From an uncultured Gemmatimonadales bacterium (GTDB lineage: Bacteria; Gemmatimonadota; Gemmatimonadetes; Gemmatimonadales; GWC2-71-9): 64,000 bases of DNA. The stretch covers positions 128,001 through 192,000 of the forward strand of contig CAVYSW010000003.1 of NCBI GenBank assembly GCA_963771275.1. Reading direction: 5' to 3'. Shown here one piece after another: positions 9,957 to 47,938 of this stretch. A program made the position numbers and the translations under genes. Every line of letters begins with the position of its first letter. Positions within the stretch are counted from its first letter, which is position 1. The notes under the pieces are model-generated. The model was not told the DNA's origin and ran no database searches. It saw only the letters and a list, made by a program, of their open reading frames with translations.

Positions 9957-11188
9957 TCGCCCTGTTCGAAGGCGTCGGGATCGCGATCGGCTCGCTGCGC
10001 GGCAACAAGATGCGCGCGGCGCTCACGATCCTCGGCATCGCGATCGGCGTGATGGTCGTGATGGTCATCGCGTCGCTCATCACCGGCATCAACCACAACG
10101 TCGCCCAGATCTTCGAGGAGGCCGGCACCCGGACGTTCTACGTGACCCGCTACTTCCAGGGCGGCATCGTGGTGAGCGACGGCTCCGACGAGATGAGCCC
10201 CTGGCGGCGGCGGCCGCACGTCACGCAGCAGGAGGCGGACCGGATCGCCCGGCTGCCGGCCGTGTCGTTCGTGGACGTCATCGAGTGGTGGGGCGCGTCG
10301 GGCGAGTACGCCGGCAAGTCGCTCGGCTCGGTCGGCATCGAAGGCCGTTCGGAGAACTGGCCGCGCGTCTCGGGCGGCGACATCTACCCCGGCCGCTCCT
10401 TCACGCGCATGGAAGCGCTGACCAACGCGCTCGTGGCGGTGATCACGCAGAAGATGGCCGACCGCCTCTTCGGCCAGGTCGACCCCGTGGGCAAGGTCAT
10501 CAAGCTGAACGGCTATCCGTTCGAGGTGATCGGCATGTACACGCCGCCGCCCAACCTGTTCGGCGACGGCGAGGGGCCACGGGCCATCATCCCGAACGGC
10601 ACGCTGAACAAGTACATCAAGCCGCAGCGGGGCTGGCTGCGGATCGCGGTGTCCCCGGTGGACAGTGTCACCGTCGCCGACGCGATCGACGAGGTCACGA
10701 TCGCGCTGCGCACGATGCGCGGCCTGCGCCCCGGTGAGGAGAGCAATTTCGACGTCATCACCCAGGACAAGCTGCTCGACACGTGGAACAAGGTCACCGG
10801 CATGTTCTTCCTGGTCATGCTGGTGCTGTCGGGCGTGGGGCTGATGGTGGGCGGGGTCGGCGTGGTCGCGATCATGATGATCTCGGTCACCGAGCGGACG
10901 CGCGAGATCGGCGTGCGCAAGGCCATGGGCGCCACCAAGCGGGAGATCCTCTGGCAATTCCTGGTGGAGGCCAGCACCCTCACGCTCGTCGGGGGTGCCG
11001 TCGGCATGGTCCTCGGGGGCGGCATCGCCTTCATCATCTCCAAGGTCACGCCGCTCCCCGCGTCGGTGCCGCTGTGGTCGGTCGTCGCGGCCCTCGGCGC
11101 CGCGGCGCTCACCGGGATCCTCTTCGGGATCTACCCGGCCGGCCGGGCGGCGCGGCTGGATCCGGTGGAAGCGCTGAGATACGAATGA
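9953..11188 (+). CDS. ABC permease, MacB/FtsX family (paralog B)
   Basis: ATGA overlap with paralog A; VGGVGVVAIMMISVTERTREIGVRKAMGA; ends LDPVEALRYE. Confidence 0.93.
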   Translation: MIALFEGVGIAIGSLRGNKMRAALTILGIAIGVMVVMVIASLITGINHNVAQIFEEAGTRTFYVTRYFQGGIVVSDGSDEMSPWRRRPHVTQQEADRIARLPAVSFVDVIEWWGASGEYAGKSLGSVGIEGRSENWPRVSGGDIYPGRSFTRMEALTNALVAVITQKMADRLFGQVDPVGKVIKLNGYPFEVIGMYTPPPNLFGDGEGPRAIIPNGTLNKYIKPQRGWLRIAVSPVDSVTVADAIDEVTIALRTMRGLRPGEESNFDVITQDKLLDTWNKVTGMFFLVMLVLSGVGLMVGGVGVVAIMMISVTERTREIGVRKAMGATKREILWQFLVEASTLTLVGGAVGMVLGGGIAFIISKVTPLPASVPLWSVVAALGAAALTGILFGIYPAGRAARLDPVEALRYE

Positions 11189-11262
11189 CCGTGTAGCGTC
11201 TAGCGTATCGCGTGTGGCGTGGCGCCAGCGGCTGCACGCCATACGCTGCACGCTGCACGATC
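11187..11262. repeat. Heptamer-array palindrome A
   Basis: gaccgtg tagcgtc tagcgta tcgcgtg tggcgtg / spacer / gcggctg cacgcca tacgctg cacgctg cacgatc. Confidence 0.9.
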
Positions 11263-11280
11263 CTTGTAGATTCCTCCTCT

Positions 11281-12525
11281 ATGCCGATCCTCGAAGGCCT
11301 CCGGCTCGCCGTCCAGACGATCCTGGCGCACAAGCTGCGCTCGTTCTTCACACTGCTCGGGATCATCGTCTCGGTGGCGTTTCTGGTCGCGGTGGTGGCG
11401 GTGATCCAGGGCATGAACGCCTACGTCAGCGAGACGATCACCGGCGCCATCATCGGCACGAACGCCTTTCAGATCCGCCGCACGCCGATCTCCGTGGGCC
11501 TGATCGACGACCAGGAGTGGCGTGAGCTCCAGAAGCGGCCCATCATCGCGCCGGAGGACGTACCGTTCGTGGAGCGGGCGCTGCCTGACGCCGTCGCCAT
11601 TGCGCTTCAGTCCGGCTGGCCCACCCCCTCGGTCGACGTGAAGTGGCGCAACCGCACCGTCGGCGACGTGCTGGTGTTCGGCGTGACACCGCCGTTTGTC
11701 GCCATCCAGGACTACCGCCTCGCGTTCGGCGACGCGTTCAACGACGTGGACGTCCGCGAACGCCGCCCAGTCGCCGTACTCGGCTGGGACGTCGCCGACA
11801 AGCTGTTCGACGACCCCGGCATGGCAATCGGCAGCACGGTGCGCGTGGGTGGGCGCCAATTCGTGGTCAAGGGCGTGATCGCGAAGAAGGGGAACGTCCT
11901 CGGGCAGTCGTTCGACGGCTTCGCGATGCTGCCGATCACGACGTTCGAGGCCATCTTCGGCCGGCGCCAGACCACGGTGATCTCGGTGAAGATGGCCGCA
12001 GCCGACCAGGTGGCCGACGGGATGGCACGCGCGGAGGAGGGCATGCGTATCGCGCATCGGCTCCGCCCCGGCCAGCCCGACGATTTCACCGTGGATACGG
12101 CCGAAGGGCTCGTCACGTTCTGGAAGAACCTCACCCGCGTGATCTTCACGGTCGTGCCCGCCGTCGTCGCCATCGGCATCGTCGTGGGCGGCATCGTGAT
12201 CATGAACATCATGCTCATGTCGGTGCGGGAGCGGACCCGCGAGATCGGCATCCGCAAGTCGCTCGGCGCCACGCGCCGGGACATCCGGCGCCAGTTCCTC
12301 GCCGAGGCGGTGACCCTCACCACGATCGGTGGCGCGCTCGGCCTCACGATGGGGTTCCTGTTCGCGCAGCTGATTCGGCTGGCGTCGCCGCTCCCCGCGC
12401 TCGTCACCTGGTGGTCGGCGGCAGTCGCGCTGCTGCTCGGCGCCTCGGTCGGCGTCGTGTTCGGCGTCTATCCCGCGGCTCGGGCGGCGACGCTGGACCC
12501 GATCACCGCCCTGCGCCATGAATGA
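11281..12525 (+). CDS. ABC permease, MacB/FtsX family (paralog A')
   Basis: ATG 11281; VGGIVIMNIMLMSVRERTREIGIRKSLGA. Confidence 0.93.
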   Translation: MPILEGLRLAVQTILAHKLRSFFTLLGIIVSVAFLVAVVAVIQGMNAYVSETITGAIIGTNAFQIRRTPISVGLIDDQEWRELQKRPIIAPEDVPFVERALPDAVAIALQSGWPTPSVDVKWRNRTVGDVLVFGVTPPFVAIQDYRLAFGDAFNDVDVRERRPVAVLGWDVADKLFDDPGMAIGSTVRVGGRQFVVKGVIAKKGNVLGQSFDGFAMLPITTFEAIFGRRQTTVISVKMAAADQVADGMARAEEGMRIAHRLRPGQPDDFTVDTAEGLVTFWKNLTRVIFTVVPAVVAIGIVVGGIVIMNIMLMSVRERTREIGIRKSLGATRRDIRRQFLAEAVTLTTIGGALGLTMGFLFAQLIRLASPLPALVTWWSAAVALLLGASVGVVFGVYPAARAATLDPITALRHE

Positions 12526-12607
12526 TCGTGTAGCGTATAGCGTACAGCGGGTAGCGTGGATCAGCCTCGGTGCACGCTCCACGCTACACGCTAGACGCCA
12601 CACGCGC
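12524..12607. repeat. Heptamer-array palindrome B
   Basis: gatcgtg tagcgta tagcgta cagcggg tagcgtg / 14-nt spacer / cacgctc cacgcta cacgcta gacgcca cacgcgc. Confidence 0.92.
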
Positions 12608-12616
12608 GGTTAGCGT

Positions 12617-13858
12617 ATGCGTCTCTCCGCCATCCCCGAAGGTGTCGGCATCGCGCTCGACGCGATCCGGAGCAACAAGCTCCGCTCCGCGCTCACCATC
12701 CTCGGCGTGGTGATCGGCGTCTCGACGGTCATGACAATGGCGTCCATCGTCAACGGCATCCGGGGCCAGATCCTCAACACGATCGAGGTGGTGGGCCCCA
12801 CCACCATCCGCATCTTCCGCTACTTCTCGACCACTCCGGTGAACCCGGACAACCCACCTCGCGAGGTGCGGATCCGCCCGGCCCTCAAGGCCGAGGAGGC
12901 GGAGGCCTTCGCTCGGCTGCCCGAGATCGCCTACTCGGCCGTCTGGACTGTCCTCCAGCAACGCCTCGAGTACGGGCAGGTGCGAACGCAGTTCACCGTG
13001 ATCTATGGCGCCGACGAGCGGTTCATGGAAATCCTCGGCGGCGGGCTCGCCCAGGGGCGCCTATTCACACCCGCCGAGACGCGCACCGGGGCCTCGGTCG
13101 TCATCCTCGAAGCGGACGCCGCCGAGCGGCTGTTCGGGCGGGTCGACCCGCTGCGGAAGGTCATGCGTGTCGGCGGCCGGCCGTTCCGGGTCGTCGGCAT
13201 CTACCGCAAGGCCGAGAACATCTTTCAGCCGCCCGGCCAGGAGATCGCGGCCGTCCTGCCGTACGAGGCGGCTCGCCGGGGCTTCCGGGTGGACGAAGTG
13301 AACGGGCTCGTGATCCTCGCCAAGCCGCGCCCCGGGGTCTCCGTGGACCGGGCGATGGACGCGATCACGGTCCAGTTTCGCAAGATGCGCGGCCTCCGGC
13401 CGGGCGACCCCAACACGTTCGACCTGGTCACGTCCGAGCAGGTGCTGAGCCTGTTCAACCAGCTCACCGGCGTGTTCTTCCTGGTGATGATCGTGTTGTC
13501 GAGCGTCGCGCTCATGGTGGGGGGCATCGGCGTGATGGCCATCATGATGGTGTCCGTGACCGACCGCACGCGCGAGATCGGCGTGCGCAAGGCGCTGGGC
13601 GCCACGCGCCGCGAGATCCTCTGGCAGTTCCTGGTCGAGGCTTCGACGCTGACCCTGGTGGGCGGGGTGATCGGCGTGGTCTTCGGGATCGTGGCCGGTC
13701 AGGCCGTCAAGGCGCTGCTGCGACTGGAGTCCGGCGTGCCCGTCTGGAGCGCGGTGGTCGCCACCACCGTCTCGGTGGTCATCGGCCTCGTCTTCGGCTT
13801 GCTGCCGGCGAACCGAGCGTCGAGACTGGATCCGGTGGAGGCGTTGCGGTACGAGTGA
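12617..13858 (+). CDS. ABC permease, MacB/FtsX family (paralog B')
   Basis: VGGIGVMAIMMVSVTDRTREIGVRKALGA; ends LDPVEALRYE. Confidence 0.93.
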   Translation: MRLSAIPEGVGIALDAIRSNKLRSALTILGVVIGVSTVMTMASIVNGIRGQILNTIEVVGPTTIRIFRYFSTTPVNPDNPPREVRIRPALKAEEAEAFARLPEIAYSAVWTVLQQRLEYGQVRTQFTVIYGADERFMEILGGGLAQGRLFTPAETRTGASVVILEADAAERLFGRVDPLRKVMRVGGRPFRVVGIYRKAENIFQPPGQEIAAVLPYEAARRGFRVDEVNGLVILAKPRPGVSVDRAMDAITVQFRKMRGLRPGDPNTFDLVTSEQVLSLFNQLTGVFFLVMIVLSSVALMVGGIGVMAIMMVSVTDRTREIGVRKALGATRREILWQFLVEASTLTLVGGVIGVVFGIVAGQAVKALLRLESGVPVWSAVVATTVSVVIGLVFGLLPANRASRLDPVEALRYE

Positions 13859-13960
13859 ACGTTCAGCGTATAGCGTGTAGCGTCTAGCGTACCAACTGAC
13901 GCCGCACGCCATCCGCTACACGCCATACGCTATAGGCCAGCCGCTACACGCTACACGTTC
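13857..13960. repeat. Heptamer-array palindrome C
   Basis: gaacgtt cagcgta tagcgtg tagcgtc tagcgta / ccaact / gacgccg cacgcca tccgcta cacgcca tacgcta taggcca gccgcta cacgcta cacgttc. Confidence 0.92.
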
Positions 13961-14316
13961 TTCCTCCCGTACCGCTTCAGCAATCCCACCAGCATGCTCG
14001 TGACGCGCTCCAGATCGGCTGCCGTCCGTTCGACGGAAGCTCCCGTTGGCAGCGCGTCCACGCGGCCGGCGACCCAGAAGTGCGTCTTGAGCTCGACTGC
14101 AGACCCGAAGGCGATGCGGACACCCCGTACAAGCTGGCGCGGCGTCCCCAAGGCGAACGCTTCGGCGACGTTGGCAGGGATGCTGATAGCAGCACGGCCG
14201 ATCTGATCCGCGAGAATCGGATGCCCTGAAAGCGGTCGGACCCGGGTCATCCGGTAGGCCTCAACGGCGAGTTCGCGACCCAGACGGTAGGCATCGAGGT
14301 GCTCGAGGCTGCGCAT
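13951..14316 (-). CDS. Four helix bundle protein (23S rRNA IVP / Avd-like family)
   Basis: 121 aa; L.AY.L..EL....YRMT...LADQI.RAAISIPANVAE...IAFGSAVELKT matches the family pattern. Confidence 0.85.
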   Translation of the reverse strand: MRSLEHLDAYRLGRELAVEAYRMTRVRPLSGHPILADQIGRAAISIPANVAEAFALGTPRQLVRGVRIAFGSAVELKTHFWVAGRVDALPTGASVERTAADLERVTSMLVGLLKRYGRKNV

Positions 14317-14346
14317 GACGCACTATGGCGCCCTTCGCCCCGCATG

Positions 14347-14355
14347 TGCTACCAT
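14347..14355 (+). promoter_or_regulatory. Candidate extended -10 promoter for bshB1
   Basis: TGcTACCAT fits TGnTAnnnT about 50 nt upstream of the ATG. Confidence 0.35.
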
Positions 14356-14375
14356 TCCACTGCACCGGCAAGCGA

Positions 14376-14410
14376 TACGCTACACGCTAAACGCTACACG
14401 CTATACGATG
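14376..14410. repeat. Heptamer array D (single arm)
   Basis: tacgcta cacgcta aacgcta cacgcta tacgATG; the last unit contains the bshB1 start codon. Confidence 0.9.
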
Positions 14411-15133
14411 CCCACGCCCCCCGTTCATCTCCTCGCCATCGCCGCCCACCCCGACGACGTCGAGCTGACCTGCGGCGGCTCGTCGATTAAGGCGGTCCGC
14501 CAGGGCTACCGCGCCGCCATCGTGGACCTCAGCGGTGGGGAAACCGGGACCCACGGCACAATGGGGCTGCGCGCCGAGGAGGCCGGGCGGGCCGCGCGGA
14601 TCTTGGGCGTCACCGAGCGCGTCAACGCCGGGTTGCCGGATGCGGGGCTCCACAACACGGACGAGACGCGGCGTGCGGTCGTGGCGCTGATCCGCCGGTT
14701 CGCCCCAAGCGTGGTGATCCTCCCCTTCCCCATCGGCCGCCACCCGGACCACCGCGTCGCGTCGGAGCTGTGCCGCGACGCGTCCTACCTCGCCGGCCTC
14801 AAGAACTACCCGGCGGAGGGCGCGCCGCACCGGCCCGAGAAGATCCTGTATACGCTGGCGTTTCGCGAAGACCCGGTGAAGCCGACGTTCGTCGTGGACA
14901 TCACGGCCGAGTTCGAGACCAAGCTCGCGGCGATCCGCTGCTACGCGTCGCAGTTCGACGGCAAGATGGCGGCGGGCGAGATCTTTCCGTCCGGCGAGGA
15001 CATCTACGAGAACGTGCGGATGCACTGCGCGCGGGCCGGCAGCCTGATCCGGACGGCATACGGCGAGCCGTATCTCACCTACGAGACGGTGCGGATCGAC
15101 GACGTGGTGGCGATGGGAGTGCGGTCGATGTGA
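14408..15133 (+). CDS. bshB1: Bacillithiol biosynthesis deacetylase BshB1 (PIG-L family)
   Basis: AHPDDVELTCGG, DLSGGETGTHGT..LRAEEA, RHPDH, P.FVVDIT..FETKL.AI.CY.SQF. Confidence 0.8.
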   Translation: MPTPPVHLLAIAAHPDDVELTCGGSSIKAVRQGYRAAIVDLSGGETGTHGTMGLRAEEAGRAARILGVTERVNAGLPDAGLHNTDETRRAVVALIRRFAPSVVILPFPIGRHPDHRVASELCRDASYLAGLKNYPAEGAPHRPEKILYTLAFREDPVKPTFVVDITAEFETKLAAIRCYASQFDGKMAAGEIFPSGEDIYENVRMHCARAGSLIRTAYGEPYLTYETVRIDDVVAMGVRSM

Positions 15134-15180
15134 GCCGGGTGATGCCGCCCGTCGGCACATCCCCCATCAGATTGCCCGGC

Positions 15181-15296
15181 AGAGCCAGCTCTAGCTCGAA
15201 CGGGTAGCACGGCACCCGGACTTCCTGATACAGCCGCCGCTTCGTGAGCTGGTCGGCTCTGCGTGTCGATGGGCTCAGCACTTCCACCACAAAGCG
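15181..15296 (-). pseudogene. Uma2 (DUF820) endonuclease remnant
   Basis: VVEVLSPSTRRADQLTKRRLYQEVRVPCY is the Uma2 core motif; no N-terminal half, and the typical YW.VD segment is missing. Confidence 0.7.
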
Positions 15297-15436
15297 CAGT
15301 TGGCTGGACCTGCCGAAACGATGAGCCGGCTGGCTTTCGCCATCCGCCTCATTCGGCGCAGCGAAACCACTACGCAAATCGCAGTCCGTACACACAGCGT
15401 ACGCTCGGCCTGCCGCTGCGGTCAATGGCGGGGGGG

Positions 15437-15521
15437 TGCTGGCGGTGGGACACGAACCCGCACGAGGGCCGAAGCCCGGAGGCTTGCGAGACCTCTGCGT
15501 TTGCCATTTCGCCACACCGGC
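15437..15521 (-). tRNA. tRNA-Leu-like type II tRNA with anticodon CGC, probably a pseudogene
   Basis: GCCGGTG TG GCG-AAATGGCAAA-CGC A GAGGT-CTCGCAA-GCCTC C GGGC-TTCG-GCCC TCGT GCGGG-TTCGTGT-CCCAC CGCCAGC A; C-A mismatches in the acceptor and T stems, T-loop A replaced by T. Confidence 0.75.
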
Positions 15522-15739
15522 ACCCCTTCGGTTGCGACGCGAAGTGGATACGTGCGGATGTCTCGCATCGGCCCCCGCCGATGCGAGCATCAACCATGGC
15601 AAGCTCGACGCCGATGACGCAGGACCTCGCACGCGCTACCGAGCCGCGCGCTCAGGCCGGCTCGCCCAGCGCAGCGAAACCGCTCCATCTTCGTCCGCCC
15701 CCCGCCGTTTCCGCCCGGTTCCCGCTACCTTTCTCCCTG

Positions 15740-16915
15740 ATGTCCCAGCACACCATCTACCTCGACAACGCCGCCACCACGCCCGTCCTCCCCGACGTGC
15801 GGGAGGCCATGCTCCCGTTCCTTGGCGAGGCGGCCTTCGGCAACCCGTCGTCGCCGCACCGGGTGGGGCGCGCCGTGCGCGCGGCGGTCGAGGAGGCGCG
15901 GCATCAGGTGGCGGCGGCCGTGAGTGCCGACCCCAAGTGGGTGCTGTTCACCAGCGGCGGCACCGAAGCCGATAACCTCGCCGTGCTGGGGGGCGCCCTG
16001 GCGGCCCGCGCGGCGGGCCGGCCGTTCCGCGTGGCGGTGAGCGCCATCGAGCACAAGGCGGTGCTCGCTGCTGCGCACGCCGTCGAGGACCTGGGCGGCG
16101 AGGCGATCGTCATGCCGGTGGACGCGCACGGCGTGCTCGATGTCGACGCGGTCGACCGCGCGCTCACCGCGGGCGCCGATCTCGTCGCGGCCATGTGGGT
16201 CAACAACGAGACCGGCGCGCTGCAGCACGTCGCGACGCTCGCCCGCCGGGTCGCGGAAGCCGGCGGCTGGTTCGTGTGCGACGCCGTCCAGGCGCTCGGC
16301 AAGATCCCGTGCAACCTCGCCGACCTGCCCCGCACCATGCTCACCGTGTCGGCCCACAAGATCGGCGGGCCCAAGGGCGTGGGCGCCCTCATCGTGCCAG
16401 ACGTCCACGCCGTCCACCCGCTGATCCATGGCGGCGGCCAGCAGGGCGGCGTGCGGCCCGGCACGGAGAACGTCCCGGGCATCGTGGGCTTCGGGCGCGC
16501 GGCCGAGCTCGCGGTGCAGCACCTCGCGGCGCACGCCGGTCATACCGCGGCGCTGCGCGACGCGTTCGAGCAGCGGCTCCGCGCCGCGATCCCGGACGCC
16601 CTCGTCCATGGGGCCGGCGCGCCCCGCGCGCCGCACGTGAGCAACGTCGCCTTCCCCGGCGTGGACAGCGAAGCGCTGTTGATGCATCTCGACCTCGCAG
16701 GGGTGTGCTGCTCCTCCGGCTCGGCCTGCACCACCGGCTCCGTCACTCCCTCGCACGTCCTCACCGCCATGGACGTGCCCCGGGCGCTCGCGACCGCGTC
16801 GCTCCGCTTCTCATTCGGACCGCAGAACACGATGGACGAGGTAGAGCAAGTGCTGGCGGGGCTGCCGGCCATCGTGGCCAGGGTGCGGGACCTGGGGAAG
16901 GCGCTGGGACGATGA
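15740..16915 (+). CDS. iscS: Cysteine desulfurase (IscS/NifS family)
   Basis: [41 protein letters not shown]; translationally coupled to mnmA. Confidence 0.9.
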
Positions 16916-47848: not shown

Positions 47849-47938
47849 GGGAAACGGGAAAAGGGAAACGGGAAACGAAGGCGTGCGCCCTCGTTTCCCG
47901 TCTCCCCCTGCACGCTACCCGCTACGCGCTACGCGCGC
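47849..47938. repeat. Chimeric heptamer array E (GGGAAAC family plus NACGCTA family)
   Basis: gggaaac gggaaaa gggaaac gggaaac / spacer / gtttccc gtctccc cctg cacgcta cccgcta cgcgcta cgcgcgc. Confidence 0.85.

Follow-up and report, generated by a model that had tools for sequence, protein, structure and literature searches.

The cassette between the permease gene and bshB1

In a window of 64,000 nucleotides from an uncultured Gemmatimonadales bacterium (GenBank assembly GCA_963771275.1, contig CAVYSW010000003.1, positions 128,001 to 192,000 of the forward strand; positions below count from the first letter of this window), a small gene predicted to encode a four-helix-bundle protein lies on the minus strand between a MacB-type ABC permease gene and bshB1, enclosed by tandem arrays of a 7-nt unit that form inverted arms. 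The gene, its leader and its arms are called the cassette here. The features of the locus and of its repeat family in the window are as follows.

13951..14316, minus strand: four-helix-bundle gene (TIGR02436 / PF05635), 121 aa, an open reading frame (ORF) with hidden Markov model (HMM) matches, antisense to both neighbours
14317..14376, minus strand: leader with a putative competence-type leaderless promoter pattern, recognised by motif matrices from the four-helix leaders of relatives
~14365-14349 and ~14328-14322, minus strand: upstream motif of the leader, starting 49 nt before the ATG, and -10-like hexamer (matrix scores 10.6 and 6.1)
14377..14407, unstranded: outer arm D, 4.4 heptamer units, abutting the bshB1 start codon; its inverted partner is 13865-13891
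13865..13891, unstranded: left outer arm of element C with ~4 units and a degenerate stretch reaching back to ~13858, directly 3' of the permease stop codon
13905..13957, unstranded: right inner arm of element C with 6-7 degenerate units, overlapping the stop codon of the four-helix gene
11190..11259, unstranded: gene-less element A of the cassette's repeat family, with left arm 11190-11221 and right arm 11231-11259 around a short spacer
12527..12605, unstranded: gene-less element B of the cassette's repeat family, with left arm 12527-12557 and right arm 12573-12605 around a short spacer
47849..47936, unstranded: chimeric element without a gene, whose left arm belongs to the fifth repeat family and whose right arm belongs to that of the cassette
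12617..13858, plus strand: MacB-type ABC permease gene, last of four paralogues, a host flank that belongs to the host operon and not to the cassette
14408..15133, plus strand: bshB1 deacetylase gene, host flank (TIGR04001 above cut-off)

Period-7 arrays were located with Tandem Repeats Finder at 11190-11221 (4.6 copies) and 11231-11259 (4.1) in element A, 12527-12557 (4.4) and 12573-12605 (4.7) in element B, 13865-13891 (3.9) and 13914-13957 (6.3; also at period 14, from 13905) in element C, and 14377-14407 (4.4) in element D. This confirmed the positions of the four elements reported in an earlier note, which had been made from the letters of this DNA, and the element at 47849-47936 adds a fifth. 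Elements A, B and C are predicted to fold as the long hairpins that the note had described (folding z -4.6, -3.3 and -2.9; 0/200 shuffles as good for each). The outermost arms, 13865-13891 and 14377-14407, pair around the four-helix gene in both the minimum free energy (MFE) and the centroid structures, with a whole-region z of only -1.4. Arrays of the same orientation had been described on both sides of the gene; this holds for the two arrays that touch it, which are direct repeats, and not for the outermost arms, which are inverted.

The gene is antisense to its neighbours and richer in A/T at third codon positions, as had been noted: its GC content at third positions (GC3) is 0.77 compared with 0.92-0.96 in five neighbours, and the 1st percentile of the genome is 0.78. 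The host operon encodes an outer-membrane factor, a fusion protein and an ATPase along with the four MacB-type permeases, and is followed by bshB1, a cysteine desulfurase gene and mnmA; those of its genes that lie outside the profile scan were named by eye. The cassette thus sits between MacB-type permease and bshB1 genes and not within a 23S rRNA gene.

In the next junction, the 15134-15740 gap between bshB1 and nifS, a fragment of a Uma2-family nuclease gene (E 2e-5) was observed at ~15204-15308 on the minus strand, antisense. In a sister family, the same bshB1-nifS junction holds an armed four-helix gene in place of the Uma2 fragment.

The four-helix-bundle protein

The cassette protein scored 66.8 bits against TIGR02436 (cut-off 24) and 62.4 against PF05635 (cut-off 33.8). 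The latter was its sole Pfam match, and no HUH domain was found in it. The predicted model has four long helices with a predicted local distance difference test (pLDDT) score of 94.7. Its best fold matches are 2GSC and 2RLD (template modelling score, TM, ~0.8; the Xcc0516 / BT_0352 fold), each with five chains, followed more weakly by Avd 4DWL (E 0.038, TM 0.75-0.81, 13% identity). Avd has been described as a positively charged pentamer (PMC6182149), and a survey of cas genes noted the four-helix-bundle family near nucleases (PMC3936711). The earlier statement that no nuclease or reverse transcriptase is encoded here stands for reverse transcriptase, since no PF00078 match was found in the genome (96.7% complete), and has to be qualified for nucleases by the Uma2 fragment in the next junction.

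No relative of the cassette protein was found among viral contigs, and phage records gave no match to a more typical relative of it used as the query. Family members were observed in 28 plasmid records, nearly all of the named ones cyanobacterial.

Empty and refilled sites in relatives

The gap between the permease gene and bshB1, 548-549 nt here, is estimated at <=60 nt in 19/36 relatives, and in two genomes of the same genus (G001 and G002) the junction is nearly closed and holds no arrays. The empty sites that the earlier note had suggested seeking in relatives are therefore present. Other relatives have the junction filled differently: in G003 it holds a four-helix gene of 39% identity that has a period-8 arm, in G005 a four-helix gene with a frameshift, and in G004 degenerate arms on either side of a spacer similar to the leader of the present cassette. 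Five genomes of the sister family have an armed four-helix gene one junction further on.

Metagenome sequencing runs gave a piece identical to this cassette (run X7) and one contig of 2949 nt (run X2) with both flanks ~99% identical and 485 nt between them instead of 548-549. The X2 insert is diverged, only two short pieces of the four-helix gene aligning, and a diverged insert between such flanks points to allele replacement within the species. No contig joining the flanks as an empty site across the cassette was found among the metagenome contigs listed, and no RNA runs were among the listed sequencing runs carrying the cassette.

Repeat arrays across the genome

A de novo scan of the genome found 177 arrays at period 7, compared with 0, 16, 15, 73, 0, 0 and 1 at periods 5, 6, 8, 9, 10, 11 and 13, and an order-5 Markov copy of an 844-kb contig contained 0 arrays against 29 in the real contig, so that the arrays are not due to chance. 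There are four clear family genes in the genome, each between inverted arms and each with a different unit. Of the 177 arrays, 148 were within one mismatch of one of the four gene units, compared with a mean of 26 and a maximum of 122 for random four-unit sets from relatives (2000 draws), which bears out a genome-wide association of arrays with four-helix genes. A weak, below-cut-off fifth family match without arms or promoter pattern, at G000:C7:9293-9562 on the minus strand (G000 being this genome), is probably decayed.

At a lower threshold, with junctions defined by a simple gene caller, 223 arrays were found, 212 of them assigned to five repeat families. Most assigned arrays (191/212) are intergenic, and they occupy 79/2579 co-oriented, 38/428 convergent and 15/426 divergent junctions, at least 132 in total. 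The arrays are thus found in junctions of all kinds across the genome and are not specific to the efflux operon. The arm lies within 20 nt of a stop codon in most of 116 cases, 46 of them overlapping the stop, and the distances to start codons are wider. The commonest arm length is four units (91/212 detected arms) rather than the roughly five that had been described, and the idea of five units per pentamer was rejected on this ground.

Stop triplets occur in 26/65 units on the strand following a gene compared with 11/65 on the other strand. Stops in all three frames were considered as the reason for periods 7 and 8, and this was rejected, the enrichment being modest (reached by 30/2000 shuffles, and by 5/2000 for other phyla) and absent in 2/5 families.

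Neighbouring arms are strictly polar, with 51/60 pairs left-right and 0 right-left. Many arms are single, their ends are ragged, 14/51 of the left-right pairs combine two families, and the spacers of the 51 gene-less elements are mostly unrelated by eye. Mostly unrelated spacers and mixed-family arms indicate that the gene-less elements did not arise by transposition of a single unit. The gene-less spacers were also considered as leader remnants. Only one case was found, that of G004 (33-nt alignment, motif score 9.0), in which the spacer aligned to the leader of the present cassette with a score of 26, other leaders scoring higher at 30; none of the 15 long spacers of the present genome reached motif score 8, and this idea was not retained.

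Three dense clusters with arrays in many successive junctions were observed (G000:C4:7083-17211, C9:231009-242104 and C10:826094-833295), as were a few apparent period-8 arm pairs (C3:437963, C3:1228104 and C10:50351), though no gene of the period-8 clade described below was found in the genome. A second, broken recA in two pieces with an internal stop (G000:C6:12459-14037) lies downstream of a yraN match and is flanked on each side by array pairs; C10 carries the intact recA.

Coupling of genes and arms in relatives and other phyla

The family is present in 36/41 related genomes. Of 122 matches, 8 were dropped for short flanks, leaving 114 loci including the four of this genome. Inverted flanks were found at 93/114 loci, compared with 1.5% of mismatched pairs across genomes and 1.9% within one genome, and at 4/300 small control genes. 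In other phyla, in a set gathered with one protein query and so biased to its closer relatives, they were found at 35/72 loci with full flanks (79 loci in total), compared with 2.3% of mismatched pairs.

The units of the relatives' arms are 7, 8 or 9 nt long. In a quick tree of 118 proteins, for all but 35 of which a unit was called, a clade of 48 rows (Shimodaira-Hasegawa-like approximate likelihood ratio test, SH-aLRT, 97) contains 29 period-8, 4 period-9 and 2 period-7 genes, and the proteins outside it belong to 44 period-7, 3 period-8 and 1 period-9 genes. The clade therefore holds 33/37 period-8/9 genes, located at 27 site groups in 20 genomes and bearing 30 different units, which indicates that the period is kept while the unit sequence turns over. 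The co-variation of repeat and protein clade that the earlier note had proposed to look for is therefore strong for the period and only weak for the unit sequence: units were within one mismatch in 7/63 different-site pairs at >=55% protein identity, compared with 22/1996 below 35%. The residues that separate the period clades were listed and are confounded with ancestry.

The family f2 clade (L040, L043, L048, L070, L072, L074, L075, L086 and L093) was observed to have long inverted flanks from which short periodicity is mostly absent.

Gene content and dispersed arrays

Array densities in relatives were obtained from samples of 9-220 kb per genome, whose regions are not random and whose genomes, as kin, are not independent. 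In G022, with one gene armed by 8-mers, 10 period-8 and 0 period-7 arrays were found in 220 kb, and in G029, with one gene armed by 7-mers, 11 period-7 and 0 period-8 arrays; the units of these two genomes differ by one base. Arrays were nearly absent from relatives lacking the gene, as an origin linked to the gene would have it, with 2 arrays in 425 kb over five genomes with no gene found (88-97% complete). Genomes with 1-2 genes had 24 arrays in 572 kb, those with 3-5 genes 28 in 499 kb and those with six or more 7 in 232 kb. Of the arrays away from the four-helix genes, 32/54 matched one of the units of the genome in which they lie (null mean 3.3, max 22).

A competence-type promoter pattern

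Two elements are shared by the four-helix leaders of relatives: a motif that begins ~50 nt upstream of the start codon and a -10-like hexamer whose end lies ~6 nt upstream of it. Promoter matrices were trained on 102 of these leaders only, a score of >=10 being taken as a match, and 70/102 were recovered when each genome was left out in turn. The four genes of the present genome have total scores of 14.8-19.8, and 47/3438 of its called genes score >=10. Among the top scorers are genes encoding a ComEA-like protein, radC, comM, a pilin-like gene and the gene upstream of dprA, together with DUF559, Uma2, two DUF4160, aspartyl protease and two Y1 transposase genes; yraN, outside the gene calls, scores 18.9. 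ComEA, RadC and DprA have known roles in competence.

Since yraN, comEA, comM and radC were chosen after their matches in this genome, the relatives are the test, with 30 or 37 loci per gene set and those without a usable start dropped. Scores of >=10 were reached by yraN in 27/30, comEA in 19/29, comM in 11/28 and radC in 11/28 scored loci of relatives, and by eight control genes in 7/239. None of nine SOS or repair genes of the own genome reached 10, all scoring <8, and SOS control was rejected on this basis. The promoter function is inferred from the pattern, and the label "competence" draws on the known roles of the genes that share it. YraN and ComM have been reported to resolve transformation D-loops (PMC13663708).

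The leaderless pattern upstream of yraN(-recA), comEA, radC and comM across the order (L457-L486, L487-L516, L347-L376 and L407-L436) marks a candidate competence regulon. The pattern was also observed at other small mobile-looking genes, namely DUF559, Uma2, DUF4160, aspartyl protease, Y1 transposase and an AbiEii-like nucleotidyltransferase (examples in G000: C3:1284284-1284664, C10:829474-830028, C2:6192-6449, C10:831391-831747 and C3:659845-660240), and several small-gene families may have joined this regulon. A different short direct-repeat motif lies upstream of lexA (G000:C10:659584), an IMS-family gene (C3:1233027) and the recA loci L385, L393, L399 and L404, and is a candidate LexA box.

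Comparison with known systems

The closest known element is the ORF-bearing intervening sequence (IVS) of 23S rRNA genes in Coxiella burnetii and Leptospira, in which a member of the same family (S23p, PF05635) lies within an inverted-repeat stem with heptamers (PMC4990558). In the Coxiella IVS the number of heptameric repeats varies, and the idea that its ORF once served mobility has been cited (PMC4990558). Unlike the IVS, the cassette lies between protein genes, antisense to the host transcript, with a promoter pattern of its own and dozens of gene-less arrays; the IVS account describes one rRNA element, and dispersed cognate repeats are not reported in the portion of that paper available (PMC4990558).

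The heptamer repeats of Xanthomonas and Nostoc (PMC4692102) and of Beggiatoaceae (PMC4679880) resemble the present arrays in period 7, in having mostly four units, in intergenic position and in frequent convergent inverted pairs, and likewise show one strand after stops and the other before starts (PMC4692102, PMC4679880). Quadruplex or translational roles were proposed for them, with no cognate gene named in the available portions of the text (PMC4692102, PMC4679880), and the term 'helix bundle' has 0 occurrences in the main texts of the two papers. They differ from the present arrays, in which several families coexist, each tied to one gene, and which include families of period 8-9. What is already known is thus the family within a heptamer stem, from the Coxiella IVS, and the array geometry, from Xanthomonas/Nostoc and Beggiatoaceae.

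In repetitive extragenic palindromic (REP) sequences with their associated tyrosine transposases (RAYT), and in REPINs, a single-copy gene is flanked by its own palindromic repeat and many gene-less copies are intergenic, with one family per gene. The four-helix gene is likewise flanked by a cognate repeat with many dispersed gene-less copies, and to this extent the REP/RAYT-like pair suggested earlier is apt. The resemblance ends at the protein and the elements: there is no HUH Y1 domain between the arms, the arms are periodic and tandem, spacers are unrelated and arms may be mixed (14/51), so that gene-less elements are not copies of one unit. Comparable intergenic heptamer repeats are also known in cyanobacteria as short tandemly repeated repetitive (STRR) sequences. 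The DNA uptake sequences of Neisseria and Pasteurellaceae are short repeats, often in inverted pairs at gene ends, and the present arrays would similarly accumulate through transformation bias; unlike uptake sequences, they are tandem, 191/212 intergenic and of several families per genome, with a candidate reader encoded between repeats. The accessory protein Avd of diversity-generating retroelements (DGR; PMC6182149) has the same fold, with pentameric relatives; the identity to Avd is only 13% and, unlike a DGR, no reverse transcriptase was found in the genome.

In a literature search that covered subscription journals thinly, no paper linking the four-helix-bundle family to dispersed repeats or to competence was found. 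The cassette is real, and is an IVS-type variant that behaves like a REP/RAYT pair without being one.

Interpretation and alternatives

The explanation favoured here, for which the chances appear evenly balanced, is a portable selfish cassette in which a competence-type promoter and a four-helix gene, enclosed by inverted tandem-unit arms, occupy tight junctions between conserved host genes. It builds on what was observed directly, namely the layout, the empty and refilled sites, the one repeat family per gene, the match of genes and arrays, the period that follows the clade and the shared promoter pattern. For a cassette that lies between conserved genes, is exchanged among strains and shares its activation with transformation genes, natural transformation would be the simplest way to travel. 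Transformation has been reported to delete inserts more efficiently than it acquires them (PMC13663708), and where deletion is easier than acquisition the gene of a cassette gains from any device that shifts this balance.

The mechanism proposed has three steps. The protein would, with good probability, act in trans to create or maintain its own family of repeats, and would likely be made during competence in this order, when single-stranded DNA is imported. The third step, taken as a whole, is put forward with clear reserve: the arms, whose outer ends meet the host genes, might pair on either imported strand, loop out the insert and bring the host genes together as at an empty junction, and an oligomer of the protein might bind several units at once and favour acquisition of armed DNA, or oppose its deletion, through the RecA/ComM/YraN machinery. 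The protein would need no catalytic site of its own. A multimer on several periodic units would account for the tandem arms, the one unit per gene and the clade-fixed period, and gene-less arms would be decayed cassettes or by-products retained by the same bias.

Among the alternatives, the arrays may arise without the protein, by slippage and hairpin-templated correction, the gene being a passenger in such hairpins that takes on the common unit of its host. The unrelated spacers, the 14/51 chimeric pairs, the many single arms, a fifth repeat family without a gene, the lack of a dose response and the 7-, 8- and 9-nt units borne by same-junction genes in related genomes all fit this explanation. 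It is nevertheless rather unlikely, as the genes of one genome differ in unit (1.9% same-genome cross match), 2 arrays were found in 425 kb of five genomes without the gene, the arrays of a single-gene genome belong to one family with the period of its gene, and the period follows the protein clade over 27 site groups.

An intervening sequence acting at the RNA level outside rRNA is unlikely. Here the arm stem in the operon transcript would hide the insert or be cut by RNase III, which would render the cassette harmless, and the protein would bind RNA or be dispensable. The pairing of the outer arms around the gene, the closeness of arms to stops (most of 116 within 20 nt, 46 overlapping) and the enrichment of stop triplets (26/65 against 11/65) agree with it, as does the Coxiella 23S IVS, which is excised by RNase III and combines a member of this protein family with a stem of inverted repeats and with heptamers (PMC4990558). 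Against it stand the conserved promoter pattern of the four-helix gene and its orientation, mostly antisense to the operon of the host (43 to 11 among co-oriented junctions, by a crude strand call), and it leaves the one unit per gene and the dispersed cognate arrays unaccounted for. It is compatible with the selfish cassette as a mechanism of tolerance.

A mechanism of REP/RAYT type is quite improbable. It would have the arms mobilised in trans by an HUH (Y1) transposase of the host, with the four-helix protein in an accessory role. Three Y1 transposase matches exist in the genome, two with the promoter pattern (13.7 each), and the strict polarity of neighbouring arms (51 left-right and 0 right-left of 60) would suit it; however, no array lies within 600 bp of any of the three Y1 genes, no single unit was copied to give the gene-less elements, and it is the four-helix genes that the repeat families follow. 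A role like that of Avd, as partner to a reverse transcriptase writing the arrays from RNA, is suggested by the fold match to Avd (4DWL, E 0.038, TM 0.75-0.81) and is very improbable, with no PF00078 match in a 96.7%-complete genome. Hardly any weight is left for the earlier suggestion that a pentamer on about five mRNA units regulates the efflux operon in the style of the trp RNA-binding attenuation protein (TRAP): the cassette's family does occupy three successive operon junctions, 2GSC and 2RLD have five chains each and Avd is a positively charged pentamer (PMC6182149), but at least 132 junctions carry arrays, orthologous junctions are often empty (without arrays at permease-bshB1 in two same-genus genomes), the modal arm has four units and the promoter pattern is of competence type.

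Several points weigh against the selfish cassette. Its binding, expression and mobility are inferred from sequence evidence, how the first arm reaches a new junction is left unexplained by it, and a single contig points to the allele swap at the site. The fifth repeat family lacks a gene in this genome, which is 96.7% complete, and its unit occurs on a gene of G003, of the same genus. Inverted flanks are missing at 21/114 loci, and 35/118 genes gave no unit, including a group with long non-periodic arms. The unit sequence follows the protein only weakly, and the coupling of period and clade comes mainly from one clade of a quick tree, where arms inherited with the gene would explain part of it. 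A dose response is absent, genomes with six or more genes having fewer arrays per kb than those with 3-5 and G016 and G031 none, in samples limited as described above, and when G022 and G029 are left out the cognate match falls to 12/33 (null mean 3.1, max 12). The promoter pattern is also carried by holB and some unrelated, non-competence genes, is absent directly upstream of comEC (0/17) and dprA (0/20), which look operon-internal, and is not seen in other phyla (1/78), where the arms often reach the start codon.

In its widest form the proposal is a tentative one, with somewhat less than an even chance: S23p/IVP four-helix genes would be transformation-driven selfish elements without an enzyme of their own, switched on with competence genes, which read a private periodic palindrome of 7-9 nt on imported single-stranded DNA and tip recombination towards gain of armed DNA and away from its curing. 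Two puzzles, the function of the S23p/four-helix-bundle family and the origin of intergenic heptamer repeats, would merge into one testable system. Four genes with four units in one genome, and the single-gene genomes with 7-mers and 8-mers, provide ready specificity pairs. If the proposal is true, the four-helix family would be the cause of the heptamer repeats of many bacteria, with the geometry of the oligomer setting the period, and the intervening sequences of rRNA would be one landing site of the same cassette. If the mechanism holds, this would be a gene that resists curing by natural transformation without a transposase, and its repeats might possibly serve as a sequence tag that raises the integration of foreign DNA.

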